The notes under the pieces were generated by a model. The model was not told where the DNA came from, searched no databases, and saw only the letters and a list, made by a program, of their open reading frames with translations. Source: Myxococcales bacterium UBA1238 (lineage in GTDB: Bacteria; Myxococcota_A; Bradymonadia; UBA7976; UBA1532). Taken from it: 64,000 nucleotides of DNA. The position numbers and the translations under genes are program-made. Numbering within the stretch: the first letter of the stretch is position 1; each line of letters opens with the position of its first letter. The DNA lies in NCBI GenBank assembly GCA_002309015.1, contig DBWM01000012.1, positions 16,638 through 80,637 on the forward strand. Direction: 5' to 3'. Shown here one piece after another: positions 188 through 34,862 of the stretch.

Positions 188-433
188 CTAAAAGGGAGTT
201 TTTTTCACACTCGCTTTGATTAAATCAATAAGATTTTTTTGGGGCATCAACTCCTGAAAGCGCAGCTCAGAGCGCATAATTACGTAATAAACCTCAGGTT
301 TTTGGAGCTGACCTTCCACTTTTTGCGTCTCGAGCTCGATCACCTTGCCCTTGGGGCGAGCCTCCGCATTCCAGGGCCAGCAAAGCATCAAAACCGCGCA
401 TAACCGTATAAAACTGTTCACCTTTTTCATCAT
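188..433 (-). CDS. small secreted protein in the GltF position of module A
   Basis: 81 aa from ATG 433, with AGGA about 8 nt upstream. The longer ORF to 574 would overlap the upstream TPR gene. Signal-like N-terminus MMKKVNSFIRLCAVLMLCWPWNAEA. The C-terminal QKNLIDLIKAS resembles RENFTPEMLKSA of the 45103..45378 protein. Lies 25 nt after the TPR lipoprotein gene. Confidence 0.55.
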   Translation of the reverse strand: MMKKVNSFIRLCAVLMLCWPWNAEARPKGKVIELETQKVEGQLQKPEVYYVIMRSELRFQELMPQKNLIDLIKASVKKTPF

Positions 434-458
434 TACGCAGTCCTTTCCCGAGCGATGT

Positions 459-2009
459 TCACGGCGTTTCTTCAGGCACCGACAGCAAATCCACATCTTC
501 GAACGGATCGAAATGCTCTCCTTCCGCAGGCACCGCGTCAACGCCAGATGGTGCATCGGAAGGCTTTTCCTCATCCTGTGCGCCTGCTGAAATCGGGATC
601 AAATCATCAAAATTGAGCTCATCCATTTCAGGCGCCTCGTTTGAGTTCTTCCCCGGATTTCCGGCCTCAGGCTTCAGCGGTCCTTCAGCCGACTCCCCTT
701 CACTCAGGGTTTTTCCTTCGGGATTTTCGGTCAAAGGCTGCGAAACAGAATCTGAATTTTCTGTTTCACCCTGTTCCTCCGAACGCTCAGCGGGCACCAA
801 ATTCTCAGGCTTCTTGGGCTGATTCTTGAGCTGCTCTGCCTTTTTTTCCGCCGCCACCAGTTTTTTTTGAGCCCCTGCAAGGTATTTTTCAACCTGAGGA
901 GGCGCATTTTGGGTTTCCGACAGATAATGGTTAAACCCTTCGATGGCCAGTTTTAAACGTTCCACGTCGCTTAAATGAGGCAGCTGCGCATCCAGATAAA
1001 GCACCGCCAGGTTGTAATCCGCCTCAGCGCCCAAAGCAGAACCGAGCGATTTTGCATGTAAAAATGCTTCTTCCGACTCCTTATACTTCCCTTGAGCTTT
1101 TAGGCAATTTCCCAAATTCACCCAGGCTTCAAACAAGGTTGGCCAACGCGCCAATGCTTCTCTGAAACGAACCTCGGCATCCGTATCATCACCCAATTTG
1201 TGATATAACAGCCCAAGTTCATTCAGGATTTCAGGCTGAGCCCCCAGCGGAAACGCGACGGCCTGCTCAAACATCGCGAGCGCCGTCGATTCTTTGCCCA
1301 ACTCCAGCTCTGCCAATCCTTTTCTTCCCAAGGCTTCAGGATTCTCACTATCCAGCGCGAGCACATCTTCAGCAGCCTGCCGGCTCATCTCAAACTTGCC
1401 CTGTTCATAAAACGCGGCCGACAAATTCAAATGCGCGCCCAGATTGCGCTCATCTTTTCGCAGAATTTGCTTGCTGTCGCCCACCACCTCAGCCGCATGG
1501 CCAGATTCATATAAAAGCACCGCATTGCGCGCATTGCGCAAATCGAGATCCTCCGGATCCTGCGCCAGGCAAGACTCCGCAAAACGCCGCGCTGCCTCAA
1601 ATCCCTCCTGGCGCATGATCAAAGAGGCGTTGGCCATCACCGCAGGTCCAAAATCCGGCCGCACCGACAAAGCCGCTTCATAGGACTTCCGCGCAGCCTC
1701 CCAATGCCCCGCCTGCTCCTCTAAAAGCCCCAAATTATAATGCGATTCCGACAAGCGCGATTCCATTTCCAGCGATTCGCGAAAATGAGCGGCCGCCGAA
1801 TCGAGAGCCCCCTTTTGAACCTCGTCGAGCCCCTGCGCGAGCAAGGCCACCGCCTGCTGATTCAGCGGCCCGCCCTCCAGCGTTTTCGCTTCCATCACGG
1901 GAATCGGCGTCAATTCATCTTCCGCAACCGGCTCAAAGAGCAAGTTTTCCTGCTGCGCGCCGCACCCCCAAAAAGCCATCCACAAAATCGACCAGGCCCA
2001 GATCTTCAT
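459..2009 (-). CDS. TPR-repeat lipoprotein with acidic disordered tail (GltE/AglT-like, module A)
   Basis: 516-aa ORF. Lipobox-like MKIWAWSILWMAFWGC. Repeated TPR-type helices (AxxxYxxAL, NLG patterns). Long Glu/Pro/Ser-rich C-terminus. Its ATG overlaps the upstream stop as ATGA (2006..2009). Confidence 0.85.
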   Translation of the reverse strand: MKIWAWSILWMAFWGCGAQQENLLFEPVAEDELTPIPVMEAKTLEGGPLNQQAVALLAQGLDEVQKGALDSAAAHFRESLEMESRLSESHYNLGLLEEQAGHWEAARKSYEAALSVRPDFGPAVMANASLIMRQEGFEAARRFAESCLAQDPEDLDLRNARNAVLLYESGHAAEVVGDSKQILRKDERNLGAHLNLSAAFYEQGKFEMSRQAAEDVLALDSENPEALGRKGLAELELGKESTALAMFEQAVAFPLGAQPEILNELGLLYHKLGDDTDAEVRFREALARWPTLFEAWVNLGNCLKAQGKYKESEEAFLHAKSLGSALGAEADYNLAVLYLDAQLPHLSDVERLKLAIEGFNHYLSETQNAPPQVEKYLAGAQKKLVAAEKKAEQLKNQPKKPENLVPAERSEEQGETENSDSVSQPLTENPEGKTLSEGESAEGPLKPEAGNPGKNSNEAPEMDELNFDDLIPISAGAQDEEKPSDAPSGVDAVPAEGEHFDPFEDVDLLSVPEETP

Positions 2010-5000
2010 GGCGTCCCTCCTTGCTCCGAAGGCGCCGGACGCCCATCGGCAGAGGCCTCTTGCTCAGCAGAATCTCCTTTGTTTTTGGCCGGTTGCAGCT
2101 CAGCATCCGGCGATGCAGATTCCGACGCCGGCGTTGTTGATTCAGGCCCTTCCGCTGCAGATTGAGCCTCTTCAGCTGCAGAATCCTCTGCATCGGCTCC
2201 ATCGTCCTGGTTCAGAGAAGGCTTTATAAAATAAGCGCCGGCCAGCAAACGCTTGGTCGCAAGCGAATGCTCCTCTACAAACACGGGATAAGTTTTTGAA
2301 TCATATTTATTAAGCGCTTCAAGACTGCGCTTCGTCCATTCGTCCCGAATCCTGGCTTTGCTCGCCAGCTGGAGCACCTCGCGATAATGCTTTTGAGCCT
2401 CATCTTCGAGCGGGATGGCCACTTCTTCCAGCTGGCTGCGATACATATCCTCCATCTCTTCCGTAAAGCTTGAAGGGATTTCGGCCTCAAAGAGCGCTTC
2501 CGCAAAATACTGATATAAATATCCTTCCCTGTAACCCGCCGCCAGACTCCAGTGAGGACTCAAATAACGCTGTACATCGTGATAGCGCCGAATCAACTCC
2601 GGCATCTGTTTTTGCATCTTTTGCAGCGTGCGCCCCTGATTATCCACAGATCCTGAGAGTTTTGTGCGCGTAAAGGCTTCAAAATCCTTTTCGATTTGAT
2701 CAAAAAGAGCTTCCGCAGCATAAGCCGCAGAGGGTGATCCCAATGGCAAGCCTCGCCGCTGAAATTCATCCAGCAGAAGCTGACGCGTTTGGGCAGCCGC
2801 ACTGAGTCGCTTTGCCTGACGCTGCAATTTCACCGTTCGGGCCAAAACCTCGATATAAAGCGCATTGGGCTCCCGCGCCTGACTGTTCACCGACTGCACC
2901 GTGTTCTTTTTATATCGCTTTAAGAACGTCTCACAAATCCGCAATTCATTAGATAAATCATTTACTTTTCGGTAAACATCTGCACTTCGATAAAATGTTT
3001 CTGCAGTATCCGACCGGGATGGAAAAAGCTCCGCATAGCGCTCGTAATTTGCCGCGGCTCTTCCATATTCCTGATTATATTCAAGATCTTCCGCAGCCCG
3101 ATACAGCGCATCTGCCCTCAGCTGCGAATCCTTGTATTTGTCGACCAGGCTCAGGAAGCTTTTGACCGCCAAATCATAATCATAAAATCGTTCTGCATTG
3201 ACCCCCAGCCGAAACAGCGCTTCCGGCGCCCTCGCGCTGTCGGGATGTTCCGTAAACACGCGCCTGAACATACGGGCGGCCGACTCAAACCGGCGCGTCT
3301 GCTCGTACGCCACGCCCGCATTAAACAGCGCGCGATCCGCATATTTGGTCCCCGGATCCTCCTCCAGGAGCCGCAAATATTCGGCCGCAGCCTCCTCATA
3401 TTTCTCTTCTTTAAAGAGCTTTGAAGCCAGCTTAAAAATCGCGCCCACCTTCAAACCGGCTATCTCGGCCTTAAACTGCTCATCTCCGATGCCCATCTCG
3501 TCCAGCAGGCCGCTCCATTTGCTCATGCCCTCCCAATCCTGGACCAGCCGATAAGTCTCAAAGCCTTCGTTGGCTGCAATGCTCGCCAGCTCATCCGAAG
3601 GCGCTTCGCGAATCATGCGCTCAAACCATTGCCGGGCTTCCGCAAAGTGATGATATGAGAGATACACTTCACCGATTTTAAACATCACAAATACGCGCCT
3701 GCGAGGATCATCGGCGCTGTTCATCTGCGCATCCACATACGCCTGGCGATCGCTCTGAAGTTCTTGCACCAGAACGGGAATCGGTTCTTCAGGTATCTCG
3801 ATGCGCCGCTCTTCACCCTGCCCTTCTTCACCCTCTTCCGACGAAGCGACCTTGACTTCAGGTGCGACCCATGGCTGATCAAAAAAGGTCGGCTTCGAAG
3901 CGAGTAAACCTTTTTGAATCTGTTCCCGAATCAGATTTTCGCGCGCCAGTATCAACGAATACGCGGCATTTTCCCTATATTCATCATGAGTTGCATCATC
4001 TCGTACCAGGGTATACTGCTCTATCGCATCTTCAAAATGGAATGAGTAATAGAGCGTGTCCGCATAGTAAAACCGAAAGTCATAAGCCTGCTTGGCCTGA
4101 GGATAAAACGTTAAAAAATTCTTATAGCTCCGGGCTGCTCTCTCAAAGGCTGCAATGGTCTCTTCCTCTGTCATTTGAGATCGCATGCTCTGTGCCCTCA
4201 GGTGAAGGTAGTTTGCTGCTTCCGCCAAAGCATCTTCCAGTCGATGTTTTGTGCGTGAAATCAAGGCCTTATCACCCGCATTGGCCTTATACCAAGCGCT
4301 GTTTTCGCCATAGAGATCATACAGCCTTTCTTTTTCCTGAATCACATCATCCGTGCGTTGCAAACGGCCATACGCTTCAAACAGTTTAAAGTGAATCTCC
4401 GGATGCCGCGGATGTGTGGGAAAAAGAGCCTGTACATAGCGGATCACATCTATCGATTGCTCATATTTTCCAGTGCTTAACAACACATCAATGAGTCTGA
4501 ATAAGACATCTGTTTCATAGGCATGGCCTGTGTTGATGTATTGTTTTACGCGAGGCAATCCCGCATCCGCATCGGGCAGACCGTCCCCATCCCAATCCTC
4601 CTCCTGAACAGCGATCGCCAGATATTGAATCGCTTCATCGCGCGTTTGCAGGTCCTTACCCGATTTTTCGAGTTCCTCACCATATTGCAGCAAATGATGG
4701 AACCCAGCGATCGCATCGGGATAGCGATCGAGCAAATAATAAGTCCAGGCCAGTTTATAGAGAGCGCTCGAATAGACCGCGCTGTCCTGATATTCGCAGG
4801 CATGCTCGTAGGCAGTCGCAGCTTCCTTGAACTTATTCTCCGCAAAATAATACTCACCGAGTCGCATCCAGGATTCCGAAATATAAGGACTTTCCGGATA
4901 TTTTTCGATGAGGCGGGCAAAGCGGTCTTTCGCTTCCTGTTCGCGCTGCATGATCAGCAGGCAATAGCCGCTCAAATAATAAGCACCATCGTTTTGAGCA

Positions 5001-5560
5001 TATTGGGGCCATTGCCGGATCAAGCGATCAAAGGTCTCAATGGTTTGAGAATAATCCTTAACAATTTCATCGGGTTCTTCATCTTCAGATGCGTTTTCAA
5101 GCATCTTTTCCTGCTGCTCTTTGGCCAGGTTATAGTTGTCTTCAGTTCTGTCGAAATACAGATCAGCCAGGCGAAAGAGCGCATCGGGTGTATAAACATC
5201 TCTATCGGGATAACGCTCAATAAACGCTTCGAAAATTTGAATGGTCTTTTCGCGCTGAACGCGTAACTCGGCTTCCCACAAACGAAATCGTTCTTCTTCC
5301 TTGGCTGCCAGTGTGCGCTGTTTTCTTTGAAAACTGTAATAAACGGTTCGGTTTAACGCCTGTTTAAAATCTGACGTCTCCTGGCGATAGAGCTCCAGTT
5401 CAGCGTTCAAATTCTTCCAGATTTCAGCGGAATGCTTATCAGGAGAGGAATGAGATGCTTCCTCTGCAACCACCGGAGGCGGTTCATCCCCCTCAGCCCA
5501 GGCCTGAGCGAGCGTTTGCCATATCAAGCATAACCCTGCGACTGCAAAGATTTTTTTCAA
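2006..5560 (-). CDS. very large secreted TPR protein (GltD/AgmU-like, module A)
   Basis: 1184-aa ORF. Signal peptide MKKIFAVAGLCLIWQTLAQAWA. TPR-like repeats throughout and an acidic low-complexity tail. TTG start overlaps the upstream stop (TTGA at 5557..5560). Confidence 0.85.
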   Translation of the reverse strand: MKKIFAVAGLCLIWQTLAQAWAEGDEPPPVVAEEASHSSPDKHSAEIWKNLNAELELYRQETSDFKQALNRTVYYSFQRKQRTLAAKEEERFRLWEAELRVQREKTIQIFEAFIERYPDRDVYTPDALFRLADLYFDRTEDNYNLAKEQQEKMLENASEDEEPDEIVKDYSQTIETFDRLIRQWPQYAQNDGAYYLSGYCLLIMQREQEAKDRFARLIEKYPESPYISESWMRLGEYYFAENKFKEAATAYEHACEYQDSAVYSSALYKLAWTYYLLDRYPDAIAGFHHLLQYGEELEKSGKDLQTRDEAIQYLAIAVQEEDWDGDGLPDADAGLPRVKQYINTGHAYETDVLFRLIDVLLSTGKYEQSIDVIRYVQALFPTHPRHPEIHFKLFEAYGRLQRTDDVIQEKERLYDLYGENSAWYKANAGDKALISRTKHRLEDALAEAANYLHLRAQSMRSQMTEEETIAAFERAARSYKNFLTFYPQAKQAYDFRFYYADTLYYSFHFEDAIEQYTLVRDDATHDEYRENAAYSLILARENLIREQIQKGLLASKPTFFDQPWVAPEVKVASSEEGEEGQGEERRIEIPEEPIPVLVQELQSDRQAYVDAQMNSADDPRRRVFVMFKIGEVYLSYHHFAEARQWFERMIREAPSDELASIAANEGFETYRLVQDWEGMSKWSGLLDEMGIGDEQFKAEIAGLKVGAIFKLASKLFKEEKYEEAAAEYLRLLEEDPGTKYADRALFNAGVAYEQTRRFESAARMFRRVFTEHPDSARAPEALFRLGVNAERFYDYDLAVKSFLSLVDKYKDSQLRADALYRAAEDLEYNQEYGRAAANYERYAELFPSRSDTAETFYRSADVYRKVNDLSNELRICETFLKRYKKNTVQSVNSQAREPNALYIEVLARTVKLQRQAKRLSAAAQTRQLLLDEFQRRGLPLGSPSAAYAAEALFDQIEKDFEAFTRTKLSGSVDNQGRTLQKMQKQMPELIRRYHDVQRYLSPHWSLAAGYREGYLYQYFAEALFEAEIPSSFTEEMEDMYRSQLEEVAIPLEDEAQKHYREVLQLASKARIRDEWTKRSLEALNKYDSKTYPVFVEEHSLATKRLLAGAYFIKPSLNQDDGADAEDSAAEEAQSAAEGPESTTPASESASPDAELQPAKNKGDSAEQEASADGRPAPSEQGGTP

Positions 5561-7785
5561 CGCAACTCCTCAAGCGACAAGGCATTATCGGGATCCTGAA
5601 CCCGCATCTGATCGTGAGCCGCACCGTTGCCCTGCAAAGTCTCTTTGCGTTTCCACGCCCCCCAAAGCAAAGTGTAACGCGCCTCCAGAGCAATGTTATC
5701 GAGCAACGCAATCGCATCATTAAAACTGCGATCCGCGCTTTTTGCTTCGAGAGCCAGGACGCGCTCCTGCAAAGCTTTGAGCGCCTTTTTGGAGCGCTCT
5801 GCCGTTTTCCGTTCGCGCGCGATTTCAAGCGCAATCCCGAGCATTCTTGACTCTGCGATCTCAGAAATCTGCTTTAAAATCGAGTAATTGCGCGCATCCA
5901 AGCGGTCAAGTCTGGCCAACCATTCGGGTGCAGGCGCTCCTTGCATCTGGCTCAGCAGGCGCAATTCTGCATTCAAAGCATCCTGATAACGCCGCAACAG
6001 TTTTTCATCCGAGACCGCCACAGAATCTTTCTCACCAAAACTCAGCCTCTGTTCTACAGATTCGGCGCGCAATGTCTTCACTCGCTCCAGCAATTGTTTT
6101 TGCTCCGCAGAGGCCGCTTTCAGTTCGGCCATCCATTGCGACAACGTCTCGCGCGCATTCCCTGTAGCTCCGCGAATGGTCTGCTCCAAAACCGTCAACT
6201 GAGCCTCTAACCCCGTGATTTCACGCTCAATTTCAAAAGCGCTGTCATCAATCTTATTGAGATTCGCTTCCAGCTGCTTTTCGCGCGAACGCCAGAGCTC
6301 AGCGGTTTCAGGGATTTGACTCAGACGGCCATTCAGCTTTTGCCGCTGCGCGATCAGTCGCTCCAACGCCTGAGAATGAAACTCTCTTTCCTGGTTTTCG
6401 ATGAGCATTCGACGCAGCTGCATCGAGCGGATCAACGCTTCCTGGGCATCGACAAAGCCAACGTACAAATCTTCAAAAAAGCGCACCCGGCTGGGGAGTT
6501 GCACCACGCGCTCCAGATGCGAAAGTGCATAATCGGTCCCCACCACTTCGCGCTGAATGACGCCCAATTCATCCTCAAGCTTTTGCAGGCGCTCAAAATC
6601 TTCGTCGGGCTGTATAAAATGGACCACCTGCTCTGGCCGAATGGGCAGGCGCCAGCGATCCGGGCTTTCGTTTTGCCAGGCCCGCTGCCGTTTTTCTTCC
6701 TCAAAAGCCTCAGTCATGCGCTGCAAATAGCCATCAAATTCCTCAGGCAGCGCGCTCATATAGGCTTCCGCCTGCTCCAGATCCGACCGCATAAACAACA
6801 GGCGACCGCGCATCACCCGCAACTCAGGATCGATGTGATCCAACTCCGCGCTGTTCATCCAAATATCGAGTCGAATCAAGGCCTTGGCATAATCGCCTTC
6901 ACGAATCGCGAGCCAGACATGCTCGTATTGCGTCTCATCAAAATGCAGCGAATCGTAGGGAATGGAAGCGTAGGCCTGAACGGATTCCTGAAACCGGTTT
7001 TGCTCATAATAGAGACGCCCCAGAGCGAGATATGCAAGATCCCGGATTTCTTGATCTTCTGGTTTTAAAGCGTCGACTTCCGCGCAATGCTGAAAGCGCT
7101 CCAGCGCCGCTTCCCAATGCTGCTCACAAAGCTCAATGACCCCTAAAAAATAGCGCGCTTTGGCAAAAGTCCTGTGCTCCACCGGAATGGTCGAAAACAG
7201 CGTTCTCGAAACGCCTAACTCCCCATGTTCATAGTAGAATTTGGCAACATCATAGAGCAGCTGAGGGTCCGTTTGGGGGTCAGATAAGAGTTGAGATGAG
7301 CGCTTTAAATGACCCCAGATCGCCTTTTCATCACCATTTTTTAACGAAAGCTCTAAAACGCGAGCTAAAGATTGTTTCTCGTATTCGCCACCCTGTTGCA
7401 GGGCTTTTTCAAAATATTTAAGTGCCGCACCGTAATTCGATACCTGGTAAAGAGATTCTGCCAAATAATATATAGCCTCACTATATCCCTGAAGATGATC
7501 CGCATCCGGTGCTTCCAACGGCCCCAGAAGCGCCATCGCAGCATGCTCATAATCACCTTTCATAAAGGCCAGCTGGCCTTCGGTCAGGCGCTTCACCCAT
7601 GCATTTTTTTGCGCAAAAACGGCGGGATCCAGGCAATGCCGCTCCACTTCCTGCAACAGTTTTTCGATGGCAACGATTTCGGTTTCAAAATGACGCTCCA
7701 CTGTCGAAGGCTCCCCGGCCCAACCCCCGGTCGAACTCAAAAAAAGCCCCCAAAACAGCAGGCAGCGCTCAAGCTTTTTGCTCAC
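5557..7785 (-). CDS. secreted TPR plus coiled-coil protein (GltC-like position, module A)
   Basis: 742-aa ORF. Signal-like MSKKLERCLLFWGLFLSSTGGWA. The TPR N-terminal half shares the motif AYASIPYDS...W...KAL with YYDSIPLDS...W...KAL of the 50002..51561 protein. The C-terminal half is heptad-rich. GTG start overlaps the upstream stop (GTGA at 7782..7785). Confidence 0.8.
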   Translation of the reverse strand: MSKKLERCLLFWGLFLSSTGGWAGEPSTVERHFETEIVAIEKLLQEVERHCLDPAVFAQKNAWVKRLTEGQLAFMKGDYEHAAMALLGPLEAPDADHLQGYSEAIYYLAESLYQVSNYGAALKYFEKALQQGGEYEKQSLARVLELSLKNGDEKAIWGHLKRSSQLLSDPQTDPQLLYDVAKFYYEHGELGVSRTLFSTIPVEHRTFAKARYFLGVIELCEQHWEAALERFQHCAEVDALKPEDQEIRDLAYLALGRLYYEQNRFQESVQAYASIPYDSLHFDETQYEHVWLAIREGDYAKALIRLDIWMNSAELDHIDPELRVMRGRLLFMRSDLEQAEAYMSALPEEFDGYLQRMTEAFEEEKRQRAWQNESPDRWRLPIRPEQVVHFIQPDEDFERLQKLEDELGVIQREVVGTDYALSHLERVVQLPSRVRFFEDLYVGFVDAQEALIRSMQLRRMLIENQEREFHSQALERLIAQRQKLNGRLSQIPETAELWRSREKQLEANLNKIDDSAFEIEREITGLEAQLTVLEQTIRGATGNARETLSQWMAELKAASAEQKQLLERVKTLRAESVEQRLSFGEKDSVAVSDEKLLRRYQDALNAELRLLSQMQGAPAPEWLARLDRLDARNYSILKQISEIAESRMLGIALEIARERKTAERSKKALKALQERVLALEAKSADRSFNDAIALLDNIALEARYTLLWGAWKRKETLQGNGAAHDQMRVQDPDNALSLEELR

Positions 7786-8444
7786 TCAGCGCCCCCCATT
7801 TCTTTCTGAAAGCTCTCAGCGCCAATGTATTTCAGCTCAAAACGCACTTTGGGGCGCTCTTTTAAATCTTTCATCAGGCCGCCCTGATCGAAGCCGATCG
7901 CCCGGATTTCCATATGGCGTCCATCTTCAACGCGAAAATCGTAGGAAGCGACCACGTTGAACACGTAATTCTTTAAATACGAAAACACACCAAAACCGCG
8001 CCCCCGATAAACCAGGCGCACCGAAAGGGTGTAATTTCCGGGCGAAAAATGCCCCATATAGCTTTGGATTTCGTCCTTCTCGCTCAAACGCCCGTCGCGA
8101 TCGTCCAGACTCCAAGGATCCATCTTGGTCAGCGTATGCGTCACGCTCTCGAGGCGAAACACAGCACCGATGTCGTTTACATGCACCACGCGAACATAGG
8201 CCCCCGCCAGATTCCCAGACAAAACCGTACTTTGCAGATAAGCCACGCGCGCTTTTGAACGAAAAACCTGCTCCTTTAAATCGTTGACCTGAGCTTCCAG
8301 CGCATCGATTTGAGCTTTATAAACATCTGGCTGCATGTCCGATTCAGAAACGCCATCGTGCTTTTCTTCCGAAGCCGGTTCTGCCCAAATTGCAAAAGTC
8401 CATAACCATGTAAAAATAAAGCAAAAAAAGCGCATAAACTTCAT
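7782..8444 (-). CDS. secreted coiled-coil plus beta-rich protein of unknown function, first gene of module A
   Basis: Internal ATG at 8444, preceded by GAGAGG, gives 220 aa starting MKFMRFFCFIFTWLWTFAIWA (signal peptide). It continues with the coiled coil YKAQIDALEAQVNDLKEQVFRSKARVAYLQ and then a beta-strand-like region. The 274-aa ORF-track start adds a non-signal leader. Confidence 0.7.
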   Translation of the reverse strand: MKFMRFFCFIFTWLWTFAIWAEPASEEKHDGVSESDMQPDVYKAQIDALEAQVNDLKEQVFRSKARVAYLQSTVLSGNLAGAYVRVVHVNDIGAVFRLESVTHTLTKMDPWSLDDRDGRLSEKDEIQSYMGHFSPGNYTLSVRLVYRGRGFGVFSYLKNYVFNVVASYDFRVEDGRHMEIRAIGFDQGGLMKDLKERPKVRFELKYIGAESFQKEMGGAE

Positions 8445-8459
8445 CCTCTCATTGTTGCA

Positions 8460-8488
8460 CATATAAGTTACAACAAAACGCGCAGCAA
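8460..8488 (-). promoter_or_regulatory. candidate sigma70-type promoter for module A
   Basis: Read on the minus strand: TTGCTG, 17-nt spacer, TATATG. Lies about 15-20 nt upstream of the ATG at 8444, in the 94-nt gap after obg. Confidence 0.25.
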
Positions 8489-8538
8489 AAACGAGCATAC
8501 GCAATTGAGGAGAAAATGGGGGAAGAAAAAGGAAGGAA

Positions 8539-9802
<1,264 letters not shown>

Positions 9803-11282: not shown

Positions 11283-13079
11283 TTATCGCAGCTGATTCAA
11301 CTTGCGCTGAACCATGCCCGCATATTGACCGTTGGGGTGAGTCTGCAGGTAAGCGTTATAGGCCTTGATGGCCTCGCCCTTATTCCCTGATTTTTCAAGG
11401 GATTCGGCCAGACCATACATGCTTTCGGCGTAACGCGGGTTGGCACCGAGGGATTTTTTAAAGAGCGAGACCGCAGAACCCGCCTGACCTTCATCCAGGG
11501 CACACCAGGCCAATCCCGCCCAGGGTTCAGGACTGGTCGGTTTCTTTTTAGAGGCTGCATCAAAAAACTTGCGTGCCTGCGCGGAGTTCCCGGATGAAAG
11601 CAACTTATGGGCCTTCGACATCAGCTGATCGTAATTGCCGCTGTCTGCGCTCACGTTATCGCCACCCGTTTTTGGAGGCGTCGGAGTTTTAGGCGGAGTC
11701 TGCTTTTCCTCTGGGGCATTGGCCTGATCATTCTTTTGATTTTTCTCGGGCGTGAGCGCGATGTGAGCCAGCAGACGGTTCGCCGGACCGTGATCGGGAT
11801 TGCGCGCCAAAAGCGCCATGATCACCTTGCGGGCTTCATCGTTCTGCTGAGCCTTATAGAACGCTAAAGCCATTAAAAACTGAGCTCTTGGCTGCTTTTG
11901 AGTTGCGGGAGAGAGCGCGCTTAAACGCTCAGCCATCGACTTTACATTGCCATTTTGCAGATGCATCTCCATCGCACCGCGCACCAGAGACACATCGATC
12001 GCCGCAGCGCCCGCTTCTTCAGCAGCATTCAAATAATCCTCAGCTCGCTTCACATCCCCTTTAACGCGGTACAGATCGGCATAATTGATCAGCAAGGAAG
12101 CATCACGACTTCCCAGCACACCTTCTGCATCTTTAAGAGATTTCGTTGCGTTTTCAAGGAGTTGCGTTGCATCCTGGCTTTCAAGTTTTTTATATTCAGC
12201 TTCACAAATCGCAGCGCGCGCAAGGCCCACATAAGCGTTGCCAATGGCCGATCCATCGCAGCCTTCGCGCGTATTGAGCGCTTCCTGATAGAATTTTTGG
12301 GCCTGCGAAAAACCTCCCTGAGTGTCGCGGCCCATCTCTTCGCGAGCGCGATTGCAGGCATCCAAAAATTGCTCCGAGCAAGGAAGTGCCTTTGCCACCG
12401 GAGGGGTGGGTTGTGATGCGGCCTCAGACATTTTGTAATAAGTCCAGCCTGCCCATCCCGCACAGCCAGCCGCAATGACAAACAGAGCCGCCATAACACC
12501 CGTACGCCAGCCTCCAGAACCCTGCGTTGCCTGAGCTTGTGGCTGCTGTCGGGCCATCTCGGCAAAGCTCTCCCCAAAACTGAGATTCGCAGAAGAGGCC
12601 AGAGCGGGATTAAATCCCGTATTTTGAATCATGGGCGGAATGGCATTGCGCTTGCTGTCGTCAAAACGACTTTCGCTCGATCCAAACGCAGAGGATCGCG
12701 TCGAAATGGACCCCACACCGCCGCCATCCGATGCATTAAAAAACTGCGCAAATTCGGTCAGCGTGCCCAAAGGCTGCCAGTTTTCACCATCGCGTGAGAG
12801 TTCGTCGACGCGCGTCACCTTTCCCTGAGCGATCCAGGTGGGCAACATCGACAAATCCTGCATTTCAAACAATTCGCCCGCGCGCGTGCGGATCATCCAT
12901 ATCCCCGCCCGCATGTTCATGCTCATCCCGATGGCAGGCGGTATAGGCGGCATCGCCCGGGGCTTGGACACGCGAAACAAATGATTGCAATGCGTGCACT
13001 TAACCGTGATCCCCGATTCCGAGACTTTGGCATCGTCGAATTCGTATTCCGTGCCACAATTTTCGCACCTGACGTCCAT
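11283..13079 (-). CDS. zinc-ribbon + GYF-like + TM + periplasmic TPR protein (GltJ-like N-terminal module)
   Basis: 598 aa. N-terminal MJ0042-type CxxC...CxxC ribbon ([37 protein letters not shown]). GYF_2-like segment [55 protein letters not shown]. One TM ([21 protein letters not shown]). Then multiple TPR units and a Pro/Lys-rich linker. Confidence 0.85.
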
Positions 13080-13081
13080 TT

Positions 13082-14158
13082 TTATTCATTCCCCCGAATT
13101 CGCTTATAACGCACCAAAGCTTTCTCTGCTTCATCGCTTCGATTCTCTAGACAGTAGGCCTTCATTAAGTAATAATACTTAGTTGCACTCTCATCTGCTT
13201 GAAGCCCCTCGAAACATCCCGACACTTCTGTCGCCCCGCCATTTAATTTCTTTATGCAGTTTTGCAGCTCTTTAGAAATCGGCCGGGGCTCCTTCGGAAC
13301 AATGACCTGACACGCAGGTAAACGCATCCACCCTACAGTCATCGCAGCTGACACGATACCCACGGCTAAAAACGCCACCACGCCAATCGCCAGCAAAACC
13401 GAACCAAATCCCAAGGTCTGCCTTGAAATCTGAGTTTTTTTACTGGAAAGTTCCGTCCTGACTCCACGTTGCCGGGATCCAGACAGCACGCGCGAAGGCA
13501 TCGCTGAAGATCGCTCAGCAGACTTCTGATCACCCAATCGCCCGTAAATCTCAGGATAGCGATCGAGCTTTGCAAAAGGACCATCACCCTGAGCGATTTC
13601 GATGGAAGCTAAATCCGGACGTCCCTTGAGCATGGCCACCAGCGCATCGATCGTCGCCAAATCATAGACGACCCCGCGCTCACTTCTGAGCCGCCAGCCG
13701 TTCGCGCTTTGCATCAGCGAAGCGGGAGAAGCGACCACTTTTGTGGCCTCACTGCCCACATGAAACTGCTCGTCTGAATCAGGTAACTCATCGAAAGCAA
13801 AGCGAAAAGCGCCCGATTGATGGAGAGCGTTCGCTTCTTGTGCCGCCTGCAGATACGGCGCATCCTGAGCGGGCGATTGCAACAATGCATCCAGCCCCGC
13901 CTGCGGCATCGGATCCAGCTGAGCAGGACGATAAGCGCGATTGTTTTGGGGCTGAGGCGCAAAGGGATACCCGCCCGTGCCCATGGGTGGCATGAGATTT
14001 ACGGTTGCCGCCCCCGACACCATCGTTTCATCTTCGTCGGCCGAAGAGGCATAAAACGGCCGCCCACAAGCAAAACAAACGACCGTTGCCTGCCCGGATT
14101 CCGGCAAATCAACTTCGTTGATCGCCCCACAATGTCGACAATTTACACGCATCATCAT
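13082..14158 (-). CDS. zinc-ribbon + GYF-like + TM + short Cys-containing periplasmic domain protein (tandem paralog-like)
   Basis: Ribbon MRVNCRHCGAINEVDLPESGQATVVCFACGRPFY, then a Pro/Gln-rich linker. GYF-like WRLRSERGVVYDLATIDALVAMLKGRPDLASIEIAQGDGPFAKLDRYPEI. TM LGFGSVLLAIGVVAFLAVGIVSAAM. About 90-aa C-terminal domain with 4 Cys. The start is one of three consecutive ATGs (14158, 14155, 14152); the track start at 14173 is TTG. Stop lies 2 nt before the next gene. Confidence 0.8.
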   Translation of the reverse strand: MMMRVNCRHCGAINEVDLPESGQATVVCFACGRPFYASSADEDETMVSGAATVNLMPPMGTGGYPFAPQPQNNRAYRPAQLDPMPQAGLDALLQSPAQDAPYLQAAQEANALHQSGAFRFAFDELPDSDEQFHVGSEATKVVASPASLMQSANGWRLRSERGVVYDLATIDALVAMLKGRPDLASIEIAQGDGPFAKLDRYPEIYGRLGDQKSAERSSAMPSRVLSGSRQRGVRTELSSKKTQISRQTLGFGSVLLAIGVVAFLAVGIVSAAMTVGWMRLPACQVIVPKEPRPISKELQNCIKKLNGGATEVSGCFEGLQADESATKYYYLMKAYCLENRSDEAEKALVRYKRIRGNE

Positions 14159-21133: not shown

Positions 21134-21835
21134 ATGAAGGCTGAAATCATTCGCTCGCTGGAACGGTACCGCATTGCCCAGATGGCGCATCCCTCAGACC
21201 GCAAAGAGCTCGAGGAATCGACCATTATCTCGTTGATTTTTAACGACAATCTGCTTGAAGGCCAAAACTACCCCATCCCCAACATCAAGCGCGCCTTCAC
21301 CTGCGATCTGCAGACCGTCGAACCCTACCTGGTGCCCGATTTTAAGCGCATCCGCTCCTACCGCGCGCTCATCGAATGGATGCAGCAGGAAGCCCGCCGG
21401 GGTATCAAATCCCTCAATCTTGAGAATTTAAAATACATTCACCAGGCCATCCTTTCGGAAAACCGGGAAGAAGGCGACTCCTTTCGCACCAATTCGCCCG
21501 TCCACCGCGATTACGCCCAGGCGATCTGCGGGCATGAACAGGTGCCGAATCTGCTGAAGAAATTCTTTGAGGAGATCGCTTCGGAATTTGAAGAAGCGAC
21601 AGATTTGGTGGCTTACTGCGCGCAAAAACACCATCAGCTCATGTATATCTACCCCTTTAAACTGAATCCGGGATCCACAGCGCGCCTCTTTACCAACCTC
21701 ATGTTCTTGTCGCAGGGCTACCCGCCGCTGATTCTTTCGGGTTTGCAGCGCAGCGAATATTACGAAGCGCTCTGCCAAAGCGATGCGACCGCGCTGACAG
21801 AGCTCTTTTACGAGGCTTTTCAAAAGAACATGTAG
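21134..21835 (+). CDS. Fic/DOC-fold protein with degenerate active-site motif
   Basis: 233 aa. The segment HHQLMYIYPFKLNPGSTARLFTNLMFLSQGYPPLIL aligns to the Fic core HPFx(D/E)GNGRxxR followed by GYPP, but reads YPFKLNPGSTAR (21650..21685). Confidence 0.65.
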   Translation: MKAEIIRSLERYRIAQMAHPSDRKELEESTIISLIFNDNLLEGQNYPIPNIKRAFTCDLQTVEPYLVPDFKRIRSYRALIEWMQQEARRGIKSLNLENLKYIHQAILSENREEGDSFRTNSPVHRDYAQAICGHEQVPNLLKKFFEEIASEFEEATDLVAYCAQKHHQLMYIYPFKLNPGSTARLFTNLMFLSQGYPPLILSGLQRSEYYEALCQSDATALTELFYEAFQKNM

Positions 21836-24319: not shown

Positions 24320-24934
24320 TCACTCGAGCGGATTAATGCGGTAAACGGCAGCGCCCCCGATCACTTCGTTTTCGTTGCTCACTCCGCCCACGCGTTCAAA
24401 TGTGGAGTAAGAATCGTTGCAATTGAGGTTGCCCATGGCGCGCGCGGTAAACCTTGCACCGCTTTCGAGGCCGGGTCCGACGCCTTTGGTCTCATATTCA
24501 TACCAATAATAATGGTATTCGTTGATCGAGAAGTTGAGCGCCTGCCACATGTCGGCGTTCCAGCGGGCGGTCCAGTCCTGAGGCGCTGTGGGGGATCCGG
24601 CGGGCGGACATTTATCGCCCGTCAGGCCGCAGCAGGGGTTGGTTCCGGGCACCGGGCCCACCGCGTATTCTCCGAGTCCGGGGAACCTTGGTTCGATACC
24701 GCGACCAAAGCGGTCGGAATAGCCCGCGTTGTAGTAAACCACGCTGCCATCGAAGAGTTTGCGCAAATTGAGCACAGCTTCGGTCGTTTTGGCGCGACGG
24801 ACATATTTAATGAATGCCGGGATGGCTGCCGATGCGAGGATGCTTAAAATCGTGACCACGATCATCAGCTCGATCAGCGTAAATCCCTTTGTGGCCCTGC
24901 TTTTTGAACATAAGCTTTGCTTTTGATGTTTCAT
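24320..24934 (-). CDS. type IV pilin (PilA paralog)
   Basis: Class III signal ...[38 protein letters not shown] from ATG 24934. Colinear with the 35603 pilin through the C-terminus (W.ALNF, KGVG, FTARA.G.L.CN, FERV, GGA..Y..N.LE). Confidence 0.88.
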   Translation of the reverse strand: MKHQKQSLCSKSRATKGFTLIELMIVVTILSILASAAIPAFIKYVRRAKTTEAVLNLRKLFDGSVVYYNAGYSDRFGRGIEPRFPGLGEYAVGPVPGTNPCCGLTGDKCPPAGSPTAPQDWTARWNADMWQALNFSINEYHYYWYEYETKGVGPGLESGARFTARAMGNLNCNDSYSTFERVGGVSNENEVIGGAAVYRINPLE

Positions 24935-24996
24935 TGCATGCCGCCGTATTTTGTAACCCATTTTTTCTAGAGTAACAGGGAAGCGCGCGATCTGCA

Positions 24997-25002
24997 ATTA
25001 TA
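24997..25002 (-). promoter_or_regulatory. possible -10 box (TATAAT) for the orphan pilin operon
   Basis: Perfect TATAAT on the minus strand about 60 nt upstream of ATG 24934. No convincing -35 element. Confidence 0.25.
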
Positions 25003-27694: not shown

Positions 27695-29392
27695 ATGGCC
27701 GAACAACTGGGTGAGTTGCTGGTCCGCGAGAACTTGATTTCGCTCAGTCAGCTCAAGCAAGCACAGGATTCACAACGCAAAACGGGCGATCGACTGGCTT
27801 ATACGCTCACCAAAATGGGCATGGTGGGCGAACGCGATCTGACCAAGTTTTTGTCGAAACATTACGGCGTCCCTTCGATCAACCTCGACGACTACCACAT
27901 CGACGACGAGATCATTCAGCTGATCCCCAAGGAGCTGGCGTATCAGCATCAGGTGGTGCCGATTAACCGCCTGGGCTCGTCGCTCGTGGTCGCCATGAGC
28001 GATCCGTCCAACCTGCACGCCATCGACGACATCAAATTCCACACCAACTACAAAATTGAGGTCGTCGTCGCAGCCGAAGAATCGATCCGCCGCTGCATCG
28101 AGCATTACTACAACCCGCAGGACAACCAGTACGAGCAGATCCTCGACGATATCGATGCCGAAGAAGTCGAGGTGGCAGAAAGCGAATCAGAAGAGGACAT
28201 CGTCGATCTCGAGCGCTCGAGCGAGGATGCCCCGGTGGTGCGGCTGGTCAACCTGATCCTCGTGGACGCGATCAAAAAGAACGCCTCCGATATTCACATC
28301 GAGCCTTACGAAAAATCGTTCCGCGTCCGCTACCGCATCGACGGTATTTTATACGAGGTGATGACGCCGCCGTTAAAGCTCAAGAACGCGATCACGAGCC
28401 GTATCAAGATCATGGCGAGCCTCGACATCGCCGAGCGCCGTCTGCCGCAGGATGGTCGTATCAAGATCAAGATGGGCGGCGGCAAGGAGATGGACTTCCG
28501 CGTCAGCGTGCTGCCCTGCCTGTTCGGCGAAAAGGTGGTTTTGCGTTTGCTCGATAAGGGCAACCTGCAGCTCGATATGACCAAGCTCGGATTTGAACCG
28601 GCGCAGCTGCAAATCTTTAAAGACGCGATCCACAAGCCTTACGGCATGGTGCTGGTAACGGGCCCCACCGGTTCGGGCAAGACGACCACGCTCTATTCGG
28701 CGCTCTCGGAACTCAACAAGACCACCGACAACATTTCGACGGCGGAGGATCCGGTCGAGTTCAACCTGGCGGGCATCAACCAGGTGCAAATGCACGATGC
28801 GATCGGGCTCAACTTTGCGGCGGCGCTGCGTTCCTTCCTGCGGCAGGACCCCGACATCATCATGGTGGGCGAGATCCGCGACTACGAAACCGCCGAAATA
28901 GCCGTCAAATCCGCATTGACCGGCCACATGGTGCTCTCGACGCTGCACACCAACGACGCGCCTTCATCGATCCACCGTCTGCTCAACATGGGTATCGAGC
29001 CCTTCCTGCTCACCGCTTCGGTCAACGCGATCATGGCCCAGCGTCTGGCGCGCCGCATCTGCAAAGACTGCAAGGAGCCGATCAAGGTGGATCCGCAGCA
29101 GCTCATCAGCCTGGGCATGAGCCCCGAAGACGCCGAAAAAGCGCAAATCATGCACGGCGCCGGCTGCAAGACCTGCAACAACACCGGATTCAAGGGCCGC
29201 GTCGCACTTTACGAAGTGATGCCGATGCTCGATGAACTCAAAGATTTGGTCATCCAGGGGGCCTCTTCCGTTGAACTCAAGCGCGAAGCGATGCGCCTGG
29301 GCATGAAGACCCTGCGACAATCCGCCCTCACCAAACTGGCCGAGGGTACCACCACCATTTCCGAGGTCGTCCGATCCTCGGCTGCCGATTAA
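27695..29392 (+). CDS. pilB: type IV pilus extension ATPase PilB
   Basis: GspII_E N-domain (LGELLVRENLISLSQLKQAQ), Walker A GPTGSGKTTT and a tetracysteine motif CKDC...CKTC; 565 aa. Confidence 0.95.
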   Translation: MAEQLGELLVRENLISLSQLKQAQDSQRKTGDRLAYTLTKMGMVGERDLTKFLSKHYGVPSINLDDYHIDDEIIQLIPKELAYQHQVVPINRLGSSLVVAMSDPSNLHAIDDIKFHTNYKIEVVVAAEESIRRCIEHYYNPQDNQYEQILDDIDAEEVEVAESESEEDIVDLERSSEDAPVVRLVNLILVDAIKKNASDIHIEPYEKSFRVRYRIDGILYEVMTPPLKLKNAITSRIKIMASLDIAERRLPQDGRIKIKMGGGKEMDFRVSVLPCLFGEKVVLRLLDKGNLQLDMTKLGFEPAQLQIFKDAIHKPYGMVLVTGPTGSGKTTTLYSALSELNKTTDNISTAEDPVEFNLAGINQVQMHDAIGLNFAAALRSFLRQDPDIIMVGEIRDYETAEIAVKSALTGHMVLSTLHTNDAPSSIHRLLNMGIEPFLLTASVNAIMAQRLARRICKDCKEPIKVDPQQLISLGMSPEDAEKAQIMHGAGCKTCNNTGFKGRVALYEVMPMLDELKDLVIQGASSVELKREAMRLGMKTLRQSALTKLAEGTTTISEVVRSSAAD

Positions 29393-29418
29393 CCGAGCAA
29401 AACTGAACCGAGCAAAAT

Positions 29419-30486
29419 ATGGCCAGCTTGCATCAACTGTTGACCCTGATGGTCGAAAAAGGCGCCTCCGATCTCCACATCACCACCGGATCGCCGCCGC
29501 AATTGCGCATCGACGGGCATCTGATCCCCACAAAAACGCCGCCGCTCTCACGCGAGGAGACACAAATCCTGTGCTACTCGATTCTGACCGAATCGCAGCG
29601 CCACAAGTTTGAGCAGCAAAACGAGCTCGATTTGAGCTTTGGCGTAAAGGGGCTCTGCCGGTTCCGCGCCAACATCTTCGTGCAGCGCGGCGCGGTTTCG
29701 GGCGCCTTCCGCGTGATCCCCACCAAGATTCACTCGTTTAAGGAACTGGGCCTGCCCTCGACCGTAGAAGAGCTGACGACCAAGCATAACGGGCTCATTT
29801 TGGTGACGGGGCCTACGGGCTCGGGCAAATCGACGACGCTCGCTTCGATGGTCGACAAGATCAACACCGAGCAGCATTATCACATTCTCACCATTGAAGA
29901 TCCCATCGAATACCTCCACCCGCACAAGAACTGCATCGTCAACCAGCGCGAGGTGGGCTCGGACACGATGGACTTTAAAAACGCGCTCCGTTACGTGCTG
30001 CGCCAGGATCCAGATGTGGTGCTCATCGGCGAGATGCGCGACCTGGAGACCGTCGAAGCCGCCCTGCAGATCAGCGAAACCGGCCACCTTTGCATGGGCA
30101 CGCTCCACACCAACTCCGCCGTGCAGTCGATCACCCGTATCATCGATATGTTCCCGCCCCACCAGCAGGGTCAGGTGCGCGCGCAGCTGAGCTTTGTGCT
30201 CGAAGGCGTCGTGAGCCAGCAGCTGATCCCGCGCATCAACGGCGGCCGTTCGCTCGCGTGCGAGATCATGGTCCCCACCGCCGCCATCCGAAACCTGATC
30301 CGCGAAGACAAGCTGCACCAGATTTACAGCCAGATGCAGGTGGGCCAGACGCGCTACGGCATGCAGACTATGAATCAGTCGCTGCTCATGCTCCTGCAAG
30401 GTGGCGAAATCTCGCTCGAAACCGCCCTCGCGCGATCCAACGACGCGGAAGAACTCAAAAACATGATTCAGCAGGCATCCCGCTAA
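29419..30486 (+). CDS. pilT: type IV pilus retraction ATPase PilT
   Basis: 355 aa. GASDLHI, GPTGSGKSTT, GTLHTNSA, and AIRNLIREDK, which resembles the conserved PilT AIRNLIRE motif. Confidence 0.95.
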   Translation: MASLHQLLTLMVEKGASDLHITTGSPPQLRIDGHLIPTKTPPLSREETQILCYSILTESQRHKFEQQNELDLSFGVKGLCRFRANIFVQRGAVSGAFRVIPTKIHSFKELGLPSTVEELTTKHNGLILVTGPTGSGKSTTLASMVDKINTEQHYHILTIEDPIEYLHPHKNCIVNQREVGSDTMDFKNALRYVLRQDPDVVLIGEMRDLETVEAALQISETGHLCMGTLHTNSAVQSITRIIDMFPPHQQGQVRAQLSFVLEGVVSQQLIPRINGGRSLACEIMVPTAAIRNLIREDKLHQIYSQMQVGQTRYGMQTMNQSLLMLLQGGEISLETALARSNDAEELKNMIQQASR

Positions 30487-30642
30487 AAACCGAATCCTCT
30501 CCCCCGAAACCGCGCATTCTCCCTCCTTTTGAGTTCAAAGAGCCTCCCATTCCCTAAAAATGCCATTCTCCCGGCATAAAAGTTTCGCGCAGCTCAACTT
30601 GCCGTTAAGATCCCCCCAATTTTTCAAAAAAGGGAACAGCCG

Positions 30643-31854: not shown

Positions 31855-31866
31855 TGGAATGCGCGC

Positions 31867-33465: not shown

Positions 33466-34862
33466 GCCGCATTCTGGTCATCGACGACGAGCTTTCGATG
33501 CGAGAAATGCTCGAAATCTTTTTTGAACGCGAAGGTCACCAGGTCACTTGCGTCTCGGACGGCCAGCAGGGCATTGCCGCACTGCAGGAAGCTTGCTTCG
33601 ACATGGTGATCACCGATTTGCGAATGCCCAACTGCGGCGGCATGCAGGTGCTCGAATATTGTCAGGAAAATTACCCCGACGTGCCCGTGATCGTAATGAC
33701 CGCCTTTGCGAGCACCGACACCGCCATCACCGCCATGAAGCTCGGCGCCTGCGATTACTTCACAAAACCCTTTAAACTCGACCAGGTGCGCACGGTCATC
33801 GACGACGCTCTGGAACGCCGCAAGATCGTGCTCGAAAGCCGCGCCGCGCGAACCAGCCTCTCCGCCGATCCCTCCGGGCATATCGTGGGCCAAAGCCCCG
33901 CCATGCTCGCGCTCTTCAACATGATCGCCCGCATCGCCAAAACCCGCACCAGCATTTTGATTCTAGGCGAAAGCGGTACCGGAAAAGAGCTCATCGCCCG
34001 CGCCATCCACGCCCAAAGCGACCGAAAAGAAAAGGGATTTTACGTAGTCAACTGCGGTGCCATTCCCGAAAACCTGATCGAAAGCGAGCTCTTTGGTCAC
34101 AAAAAAGGCAGCTTCACCGGCGCCCTTTCGGATCACGTGGGGCTCTTTCAGGCAGCCGACGGCGGTACCCTGTTTTTGGATGAAGTCAGCGAGCTGCCGC
34201 TCTCGATGCAGGTCAAACTCCTCCGCGCCCTGCAGGAACGCAAGATCAAGCCCATCGGCGAAACCCGCGAGCTGCCCGTCAACGTGCGCGTGATCAGCGC
34301 CACCAACCGCGATCTCGAAGCCGAGGTCAAAGCGGGCCGATTCCGCGAGGATCTGTATTACCGCTTAAACGTGATCGCCCTCGAATTGCCACCCCTGCGC
34401 GATCGCCCGGCCGACATTCCCCTTTTGGCGCAACATTTTCTGAAGCGCTTTGCCGCCGACTACCAGAAGCCGGTGACCGATTTTGAGCCCTCGGCCCTCC
34501 ATGCGCTCAGGCGCTACGCGTTCCCGGGCAACGTGCGCGAACTGCAGAATCTTGTGGAGCGGGCGGTCGCCCTCGAAGAGGGACAAAAATTGTCCCTAAA
34601 GAGTTTTCCAAAGTCAATTCAAGAAATTGCGCGTCCCATCACGACATCGCTGCCGCCATTGCCCATCATCGAATGGAATCAGAGCGAGACGGGCTTAAAC
34701 CTCGAAGAGGCGGTCGATGCGGTGGAACGCCGCTTAATTTCACAGGCGCTGGAGCAAACCGAAGGCAAAAAGAAAGCCGCCGCACGCCTTTTGGGCATCA
34801 CGTTCCGTTCGCTCCGCTATCGCCTTCAAAAACTCGACATCAAGGCAGACGATGAAGAATAG
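33462..34862 (+). CDS. pilR: sigma54-dependent response regulator PilR (NtrC family)
   Basis: ATG 33462 overlaps the pilS stop (ATGA). [10 protein letters not shown] receiver, AAA+ [14 protein letters not shown] (GAFTGA-type sigma54 contact loop) and a C-terminal HTH. The track extension from 33105 overlaps pilS in another frame. Confidence 0.93.

Follow-up and report, generated by a model that had tools for sequence, protein, structure and literature searches.

GltJ of Myxococcus xanthus (AgmX, MXAN_4862) is, to our knowledge, the only switch composed of a zinc ribbon (ZnR), a linker and a GYF domain whose mechanism has been worked out. Here we describe two adjacent genes, A and B, from a 64,000-nucleotide stretch of contig DBWM01000012.1 of Myxococcales bacterium UBA1238 (assembly GCA_002309015.1, positions 16,638 to 80,637; this whole stretch is called the window below), whose products are laid out in a similar way. 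The N-terminus of GltJ consists of a ZnR (residues 1-42), a 95-residue linker and a GYF domain (138-222); MglA-GTP and the ZnR compete for a motif in the linker, the GYF domain binds a proline-rich sequence of AglZ, and the freed ZnR helps to recruit MglB (PMC11135422). According to the main text of the same study (Attia et al. 2024; PMC11135422), an adjacent ZnR is present in about 44% of bacterial GYF proteins and lies N-terminal to the GYF domain chiefly in myxobacteria and planctomycetes, and ZnR-GYF modules usually precede membrane-associated receptor modules. The authors propose there that ZnR-linker-GYF proteins are versatile switch modules in conserved operons (figs S3-S4), and more broadly that such modules are general transmembrane signaling devices with other ligands. 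A second relevant protein, ZitP of Caulobacter crescentus (2nb9), is a bitopic membrane protein whose N-terminal ribbon has the same fold; ZitP has no GYF domain, however, and bears a DUF3426 periplasmic domain, and its partner PopZ is absent from myxobacteria (PMC11135422).

On the strength of sequence comparisons and structural models, we consider it reasonably probable that A and B form a conserved, co-translated pair of N-in bitopic inner-membrane adaptor or switch proteins in this Myxococcota-type bacterium. An open reading frame (ORF) check confirmed exactly the coordinates of the two genes and the 2-nt spacing given in a first-pass annotation of the window, and the four elements described there in the same order in both proteins (ZnR, linker, GYF, transmembrane helix) are present, the GYF at the level of fold. 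The genes and their parts are listed here, with the evidence in brackets.

13082..14158, minus strand: gene A, encoding a 358-aa bitopic membrane protein with ZnR, linker, GYF-fold domain, transmembrane helix and short TPR domain (ORF)
14045..14158, minus strand: A residues 1-38, zinc ribbon CxxC...CxxC (AlphaFold, BLASTP against the B ribbon, conserved Cys)
13703..14044, minus strand: A residues 39-152, disordered linker with short motifs (pLDDT, alignment A3)
13508..13702, minus strand: A residues 153-217, GYF-fold domain, GWRLRSERGVVYDL... (AlphaFold, Foldseek, hhalign)
13331..13414, minus strand: A residues ~249-276, single transmembrane helix (hydropathy maximum 2.7; model helix 251-275)
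13085..13330, minus strand: A residues 277-358, short periplasmic domain made up of two TPR-like hairpins (AlphaFold, Foldseek)
11283..13079, minus strand: gene B, encoding a 598-aa bitopic membrane protein with ZnR, linker, GYF-fold domain, linker, transmembrane helix and large TPR domain (ORF, Pfam/NCBIfam hits)
12966..13079, minus strand: B residues 1-38, MJ0042-type zinc ribbon (PF13717, TIGR02098, family profile, Foldseek)
12732..12905, minus strand: B residues 59-116, GYF-fold domain, ...WQPLG...FF (AlphaFold, Foldseek, family GYF_2 hits)
12438..12512, minus strand: B residues ~190-214, single transmembrane helix (hydropathy; aligns with the transmembrane helix of the homologues in loci L004 and L009)
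11286..12437, minus strand: B residues 215-598, two-block periplasmic TPR domain with a Pro/Thr/Lys-rich spacer at ~445-480 (Pfam, PDB TPR hits)

Gene A ends in a TAA stop that is followed, after a gap of 2 nt, by the ATG of gene B, and a purine-rich GGGGGA lies about 12 nt 5' of this ATG. Both the spacing and the GGGGGA fit translational coupling of A and B, and the pair is probably co-translated. A TTG-extended version of the gene A ORF reaches 14173; the A-family alignment points to the third ATG, at 14152, as the possible true start. An identical copy of protein A is present on two public contigs. A scan for consensus promoters and terminators found fewer sites than in shuffled controls, and no operon boundary isolating the A-B pair.

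The ribbon of protein B exceeds the cutoffs of both PF13717 (Zn_ribbon_4; 53.5 against 30.3 bits) and TIGR02098 (MJ0042_CXXC; 36.4 against 20.9 bits). Several TPR families also lie above cutoff (TPR_19 at 75 bits, TPR_16 at 60, TPR_14 at 58 and TPR_2 at 52), which bears out the large periplasmic TPR domain previously ascribed to this protein. Compared with PDB sequences, a B-family profile matched the GltJ ZnR best (7zok, printed 7Z0K in PMC11135422; E=4.4e-5), followed by ZitP 2nb9 (E=9.7e-4). B itself has no Pfam GYF_2 (PF14237) match at E<=1; within the B family, GYF_2 is matched below threshold by 23 of 69 members (best 1.4e-4) and is the only family other than zinc ribbons among the 25 listed for these 69 proteins. 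Residues 1-120 of B were modeled with AlphaFold from 69 sequences, with a mean predicted local distance difference test (pLDDT) score of 71.6. The model comprises a ribbon of four strands, disorder at 41-57 and, at 61-116, a beta-beta-alpha-beta-beta-alpha domain, the GYF domain being modeled at a pLDDT of about 80. When this model was compared with the PDB by Foldseek, the ZitP zinc finger 2nb9 came first (probability 1.00, 31% identity), next the GYF domains of Smy2, GIGYF1/2 and GltJ (7z3c; probability 0.98, TM score 0.50), and then the GltJ ZnR 7zok, with probabilities between 0.91 and 0.99 for the GYF matches. The linker between ZnR and GYF is about 20 aa long and is not conserved. A search with a three-sequence profile of the B N-terminus returned more than 200 relatives, in which the ribbon is followed by the block W-x-V-R...F-x-E-L-T-T-L-Q-K-W-I-V-E-R-K-V...G-E-x-W-K-R-L-G...E-L-x-x-F-F; every listed relative is at most 242 aa long, many of those with a name being marked as partial, and full-length architectures were read from loci. 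L004 and L009 encode full-length homologues of B, whose alignment with B includes the TPR domain (E=5e-58 and 6e-52).

Protein A has no Pfam or NCBIfam match at threshold, and neither TIGR02098 nor PF13717 recognizes its MJ0042-type ribbon at that level. The ribbon is indicated by CxxC pairs at residues 7-10 and 28-31, C28 and C31 being at least 90% conserved in the A family (alignment A3), by a pairwise BLASTP match to the B ribbon (E=0.001, 41% identity), by weak Zn_ribbon_4 matches in 8 of 23 A-family members and by four strands modeled at pLDDT 91-94. AlphaFold, working from 23 sequences, modeled A at a pLDDT above 90 in the ribbon (1-38), the middle domain (155-217), the transmembrane helix (251-275) and a C-terminal domain of four helices (296-357); in the linker, the score falls below 50 at residues 46-81, 95-100 and 116-150. 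The middle domain, with a pLDDT of about 94, has the same beta-beta-alpha-beta-beta-alpha topology as that of B; its top Foldseek match is the GYF domain of GIGYF1 (7ruq; probability 0.99, TM score 0.59), and this region is the most conserved block in the A family. GYF_2 does not match A at E<=1 and is not one of the 25 families that a scan of the A family listed, and a PDB sequence search with the GYF-region profiles A4 and A5 returned no GYF entry. The last ~80 residues of A are modeled as two TPR hairpins (pLDDT 93-98; Foldseek TM score 0.76 to the consensus TPR 2avp), and 19 of 23 A-family members give weak TPR_19 matches. This domain had been described in the first-pass annotation as a Cys-containing, TPR-hairpin-like segment of about 90 aa; the hairpins are upheld by the model and by Foldseek, but the cysteines are not conserved. 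All four are lineage-specific, occupying unconserved columns of alignment A3, and conserved disulfides in this domain were for that reason rejected.

A word-indexed homologue search with full-length A found only A itself. An exhaustive HMMER search with the same protein yielded 36 representative clusters of 231-567 aa, mostly about 340-460 aa. The family alignment starts with an N-terminal C-x-x-C...C-x-x-C and continues into a long variable linker, in which three short motifs (consensus DLSAIL, FxFG and ESTRVV) are conserved amid disorder; the versions in protein A are LDALLQSP, FRFAFDEL and EATKVVASP. By analogy with the linker motif of GltJ, these are candidate docking sites. A middle block follows (GWRVRSERGxVYELMTVDAVVAWLEGK...ARGxGxF...PE), then a second linker, a transmembrane segment and the C-terminal motif YTAA...DPRVxRYLALALH...EA..AL.EYRR. 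Since the A family comprises 36 representative clusters with the same layout, and the N-terminal module of B has more than 200 relatives, the architecture of the pair is no chance product.

Alignment of the middle domains of A and B by hhalign (81.6% probability, E=1.1e-5, 53 columns) indicates that the two are homologous. Judged from the models, their GYF assignments hold at the level of fold and family and not by a threshold hidden Markov model (HMM) match, while the ribbon and the TPR of A rest on fold, sub-threshold family hits and the A-B alignment rather than on threshold HMMs. Annotation of both proteins as ZnR plus GYF_2 by HMM is therefore sustained for the B ribbon, which lies above cutoff, but not for the A ribbon or for GYF_2 in either protein. 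Structure prediction, on the other hand, gave ribbon and GYF topology in both A and B. The transmembrane segments also start similarly in the two families, with G-[FWLM]-x-x-G-V (A, ~247-256, LGFGSVL; B, ~187-196, GGWRTGV; B relatives, RGFVIGV), a motif that may reflect either common ancestry of the whole genes or a common helix-packing interface.

The likeness to GltJ is extensive. In all three proteins an MJ0042-type ribbon is followed by a disordered linker, a GYF domain that lacks the G-Y-F residues (in A and B assigned at fold level), a further linker, one transmembrane helix and a periplasmic protein-binding domain. The GltJ model NF033761 is matched below threshold by all 69 of the 69 B-family N-termini (best 3.3e-10) and by 1 of 23 A-family members (E=0.13). 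The N-terminal modules of B and GltJ are paralogous. However, with NF033761 (cutoff 450 bits) B itself reaches 22.1 bits, and A has no match. The periplasmic domain is TPR in A and B rather than TonB_C/AgmX-PglI as in GltJ; a search with TonB_C (PF03544) and NF033768 at E<=1 found no match in either protein, while the GltG-type protein of the window, our positive control, scored 117.9 bits on NF033768. Finally, A-B is located between uvrD and mtnA, a position that recurs in related loci, and is neither in nor beside a glt cluster (in M. xanthus, gltJ belongs to the G1 cluster, adjacent to gltI). Since score, periplasmic domain and genomic location all fail, neither A nor B is a GltJ orthologue. 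Unlike GltJ, A and B are moreover a tandem pair, and the ZnR-GYF linker is about 20 aa in B as against 95 aa in GltJ. By analogy, A is the more GltJ-like of the two in its switch logic, because its linker is long and carries conserved motifs, whereas that of B is short and not conserved. The ligands MglA-GTP, AglZ and MglB are those of GltJ. The earlier view of A and B as a GltJ-type cytoplasmic module is thus borne out in the layout, in 7zok as the best PDB match and in the sub-threshold GltJ HMM scores, but not with regard to orthology or a link to gliding; its premise of an encounter between the ZnR and MglA was misdirected, as it is the linker, not the ZnR, that MglA-GTP binds in GltJ (PMC11135422).

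A and B do fit the bacterial class of ZnR-linker-GYF membrane switches set out in the main text of Attia et al. 2024. In both proteins the ZnR is N-terminal to the GYF domain, the linker between them is flexible and a membrane-associated module follows; myxobacterial enrichment and a proposed switch role are further points of likeness. The first-pass annotation knew of no described ZnR-GYF-TM-TPR pair, but the class is already known in general terms (PMC11135422). The TPR-bearing family itself, its tandem partner A and its Myxococcota-wide spread do not appear in the main text of that paper. A search for DUF3426, the domain that marks the ZitP-like family, found no match in A or B. With GltC, GltD and GltE the likeness is one of periplasmic TPRs, the C-terminal block of B scoring 27.5 bits against the GltE model, far below its 225-bit cutoff; B, however, is membrane-anchored and has a cytoplasmic module, whereas GltC, GltD and GltE have signal peptides (PMC3169522) and GltE is a lipoprotein by the name of its NCBIfam model.

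The conservation of the pair is apparent from a locus scan of one genome per species, in which the GYF-like block of A (alignment A4) served as query. The scan returned 13 loci, from Myxococcota or from unclassified metagenome-assembled genomes (MAGs; labels Bradymonadia, Nannocystaceae, "Myxococcales" and "Myxococcota"), and a B-type gene comes directly after A in all 13. The N-terminal signature of B (MDV[R/K]...) is encoded 500-760 nt past the A match in 11 of these; in the remaining two, the B-type ORF directly after A begins MNVSCEKCGTDYDL. In locus L001, A and the B-type ORF overlap by 4 nt. The gene order in related loci is glmS-uvrD-A-B-(gatA-gatB)-mtnA-rplU-rpmA-obg, and the window has, on the same strand, GlmU, GlmS and a UvrD/PcrA-type helicase upstream of the pair and MtnA (IF-2B family), L21, L27 and Obg downstream of it.

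The N-terminal module of B is more widely distributed, occurring in MAGs that bear the labels Myxococcaceae, Myxococcus, Aggregicoccus, Anaeromyxobacteraceae, Polyangia, Haliangium, Sorangium and Myxococcota. B is divergent and adjoins ftsK on three contigs, one from Anaeromyxobacteraceae and two from long reads (L014 and L015). L014 and L015 are long-read metagenome loci with many frameshifts and were used for gene order only: in both, B lies ahead of gat genes and rplU, and L014 continues with rpmA and obg. A frame-shifted fragment in L014 encodes a C-terminal TPR motif resembling the terminal one of B. No A gene was seen in any of the three ftsK-adjacent loci. Because the B module is found in many lineages, and these loci have B without A, we conclude that B is ancestral and present across the phylum, while A, which evolves fast, is a partner limited to some lineages, where it always sits immediately upstream of B. 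In L018, from a Deltaproteobacteria-labelled MAG, a 391-aa Zn_ribbon_4 protein (6770-7945) takes the place of A between uvrD and B. This protein has a WKLR...G (W-x-LR..G) motif, a transmembrane segment and a C-terminal helical region and is barely alignable to A; therefore, A evolves fast. A literature search for a named M. xanthus orthologue found none; the M. xanthus counterpart of B would be expected between ftsK and gatCAB-rplU-rpmA-obg.

The gene pair, its domain architecture, its conservation and its synteny are direct observations, and from them we propose a model for how the two proteins may work. The cytoplasmic half of each would contain a ribbon of the MJ0042/ZitP/GltJ type joined by an intrinsically disordered linker to a GYF domain of bacterial type; a second linker, one transmembrane helix and a periplasmic TPR domain would follow, the last being long in B (about 380 aa) and short in A (about 80 aa). 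In this model, the GYF domains and the conserved linker motifs would bind cytoplasmic partners, and the zinc ribbon, as in GltJ, would either fold back on the linker or recruit a regulator. On the periplasmic side, the TPR domains would hold a partner, and possibly each other. A and B probably act together, and we infer switch behavior, hetero-complex formation and the membrane topology from their architecture.

Several points weigh against this model. Neither protein reaches the GYF_2 threshold, all Foldseek E-values for A and B exceed 0.001, and the model of B is only moderately confident (pLDDT 72). The short and non-conserved linker of B makes a GltJ-like competition for the linker doubtful in this protein. 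Furthermore, the neighbors of the pair are housekeeping genes, which offer no functional clue, and the pairing of A with B is drawn from adjacency alone.

Two Glt-like clusters elsewhere in the window bear on the alternatives.

43193-51957, minus strand: Glt core-type cluster (GltC, GltD-like, GltE and GltG by NCBIfam scores)
459-8606, minus strand: second, divergent Glt-like module, directly after obg

In the first of these, GltC (391.6 bits, cutoff 450), GltE (120 bits, cutoff 225) and GltG (363.9 bits, cutoff 650) all score below their equivalog cutoffs, and a GltD-like TPR protein of 1064 aa is also present. The FHA+TonB_C protein at 43193-45070 matches the GltG model NF033760 (363.9 bits, E=1.7e-108) and has an AgmX-PglI C-terminal domain. 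M. xanthus GltG itself combines FHA with TonB_C (PMC3169522 Table 1; PMC11761067). The suggestion that TonB_C had moved onto the FHA protein, as part of a modular re-wiring of the machine, therefore fails and was rejected; this is the canonical GltG architecture, with nothing swapped. No aglRQS, gltJ or gltI adjoins the core cluster within the window.

The second module encodes, in order, a 274-aa protein, a GltC-like protein of 742 aa, a TPR protein of 1184 aa and a GltE-like protein of 516 aa. The 274-aa protein is coiled-coil/beta-rich and has no Pfam or NCBIfam match. The signature of this first gene recurs after obg in 7 of the 13 related loci, at a distance of 6-9 kb from A, and in L004 (15676-18705) the first gene is 50% identical to that of the window over 163 residues and the second, GltC-like gene 29% identical over 719 residues. 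An ORF of about 80 aa (window ~225-460, minus strand) comes after the GltE-like gene; its N-terminus is signal-peptide-like (MMKKVNSFIRLCAVLMLCWPWNAEA...), and it may encode a small secreted component of the module.

The first-pass annotation read A and B as GltJ-type switches that gate a Glt-like gliding machine through MglA-GTP, a model in which their TPR domains would couple to GltC/D/E-like proteins in place of TonB_C, with module 459-8606 as the candidate machine. Of the alternatives to an adaptor or switch pair this survives best, although we regard it as unlikely. The B N-terminus is the closest relative of the GltJ ZnR in the PDB and NCBIfam comparisons, the window holds two Glt-like clusters, one of which keeps its first gene near A in related loci and aligns well with L004 in its first two genes, and that module has no GltG/GltJ-type anchor or FHA/TonB_C gene of its own through window position 1. 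Conversely, between the pair and the module there are always four to six housekeeping genes (mtnA, gatAB, rplU, rpmA, obg), and L014 retains B ahead of gatB-rplU-rpmA-obg yet has no TPR module after obg. Neither A nor B carries the TonB_C or AgmX/PglI C-terminal domain, the canonical cluster already possesses its own GltG, and MglA, MglB and AglZ were not found among the window ORFs examined. In addition, the main text of Attia et al. (PMC11135422) reports that outside Myxococcales, ZnR-GYF proteins are uncorrelated with MglA or AglZ. The pair, the intervening housekeeping genes and the Glt-like module thus make up a conserved but loose neighborhood, and the gliding hypothesis stays at low probability.

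Somewhat less probable again is a regulator of the envelope or of division, in which the TPR domain would bind a peptidoglycan enzyme or a divisome part, in the manner of LpoP, ActH or CpoB, and the ZnR-GYF half would relay a cytoplasmic cue. The divergent B beside ftsK in Anaeromyxobacteraceae and other Myxococcia-type loci is consistent with such a role, as are the position of the window B downstream of glmU-glmS-uvrD, the LpoP and ActH TPR domains among the Foldseek matches of A, and weak matches of B to CpoB/YbgF, LapB and BepA. TPR similarity is generic, however, adjacency to housekeeping genes is weak evidence, and no specific family was matched.

We give only a slim chance to a more specific proposal, that A-B is the inner-membrane anchor and switch of the obg-linked Glt-like module, in which TPR-TPR contacts would replace those between TonB_C and GltD and a heterodimeric ZnR-GYF unit would replace GltJ. 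A ZitP-like polarity factor, whose ribbon would dock on a polar organizer while the membrane and periplasmic parts position an envelope machine, for instance type IV pili, is slimmer still: 2nb9 is both the top Foldseek match of B and a profile match, and a pilB-pilT-pilC-pilS-pilR-pilA cluster lies at ~27.7-36.2 kb of the window, but the pair lacks DUF3426, PopZ is absent from Myxococcus (PMC11135422), and the pil cluster, at a distance of 13 kb, shows no synteny with A-B in the related loci.

The remainder of the window contains several features of separate interest. The type IV pilus cluster (27695-36172, plus strand) comprises pilB, pilT, pilC, a pilS-like kinase, a sigma-54 pilR-like regulator and two pilins, whose adjacent genes (34852-35523 and 35603-36172) encode N-methylation motifs; a further N_methyl protein is encoded at 24320-24997. 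Just past the pilin genes, at 36001-39900, the G+C content dips to 0.435 from about 0.55 elsewhere. The genes here encode a 393-aa polytopic membrane protein with no Pfam match (36215-37396) and two sulfatase-superfamily fragments (37731-38573 and 38583-39851), and the region may be an acquired islet for pilin or envelope modification. A Fic/DOC-domain protein (38 bits; 21134-21835, plus strand) adjoins a class IV aminotransferase and diverges from glmU.

As an adaptor or switch protein of the ZnR-linker-GYF class, B would represent a concrete second family alongside GltJ, phylum-wide and present in genetically tractable Myxococcus-type genomes; its periplasmic output would differ from that of GltJ, and some lineages would provide it with a dedicated partner. 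Its ligands would show whether the ZnR/linker/GYF switch logic reaches beyond gliding, and could reveal a new link between envelope and cytoplasm in myxobacteria. If A-B does anchor the obg-linked module, the two would define a distinct and ancient type of Glt-like envelope machine in the Myxococcota. Service of the pair to this nearby module would likewise help to explain the function of the ancestral "core complex", a question asked since Luciano et al. 2011.

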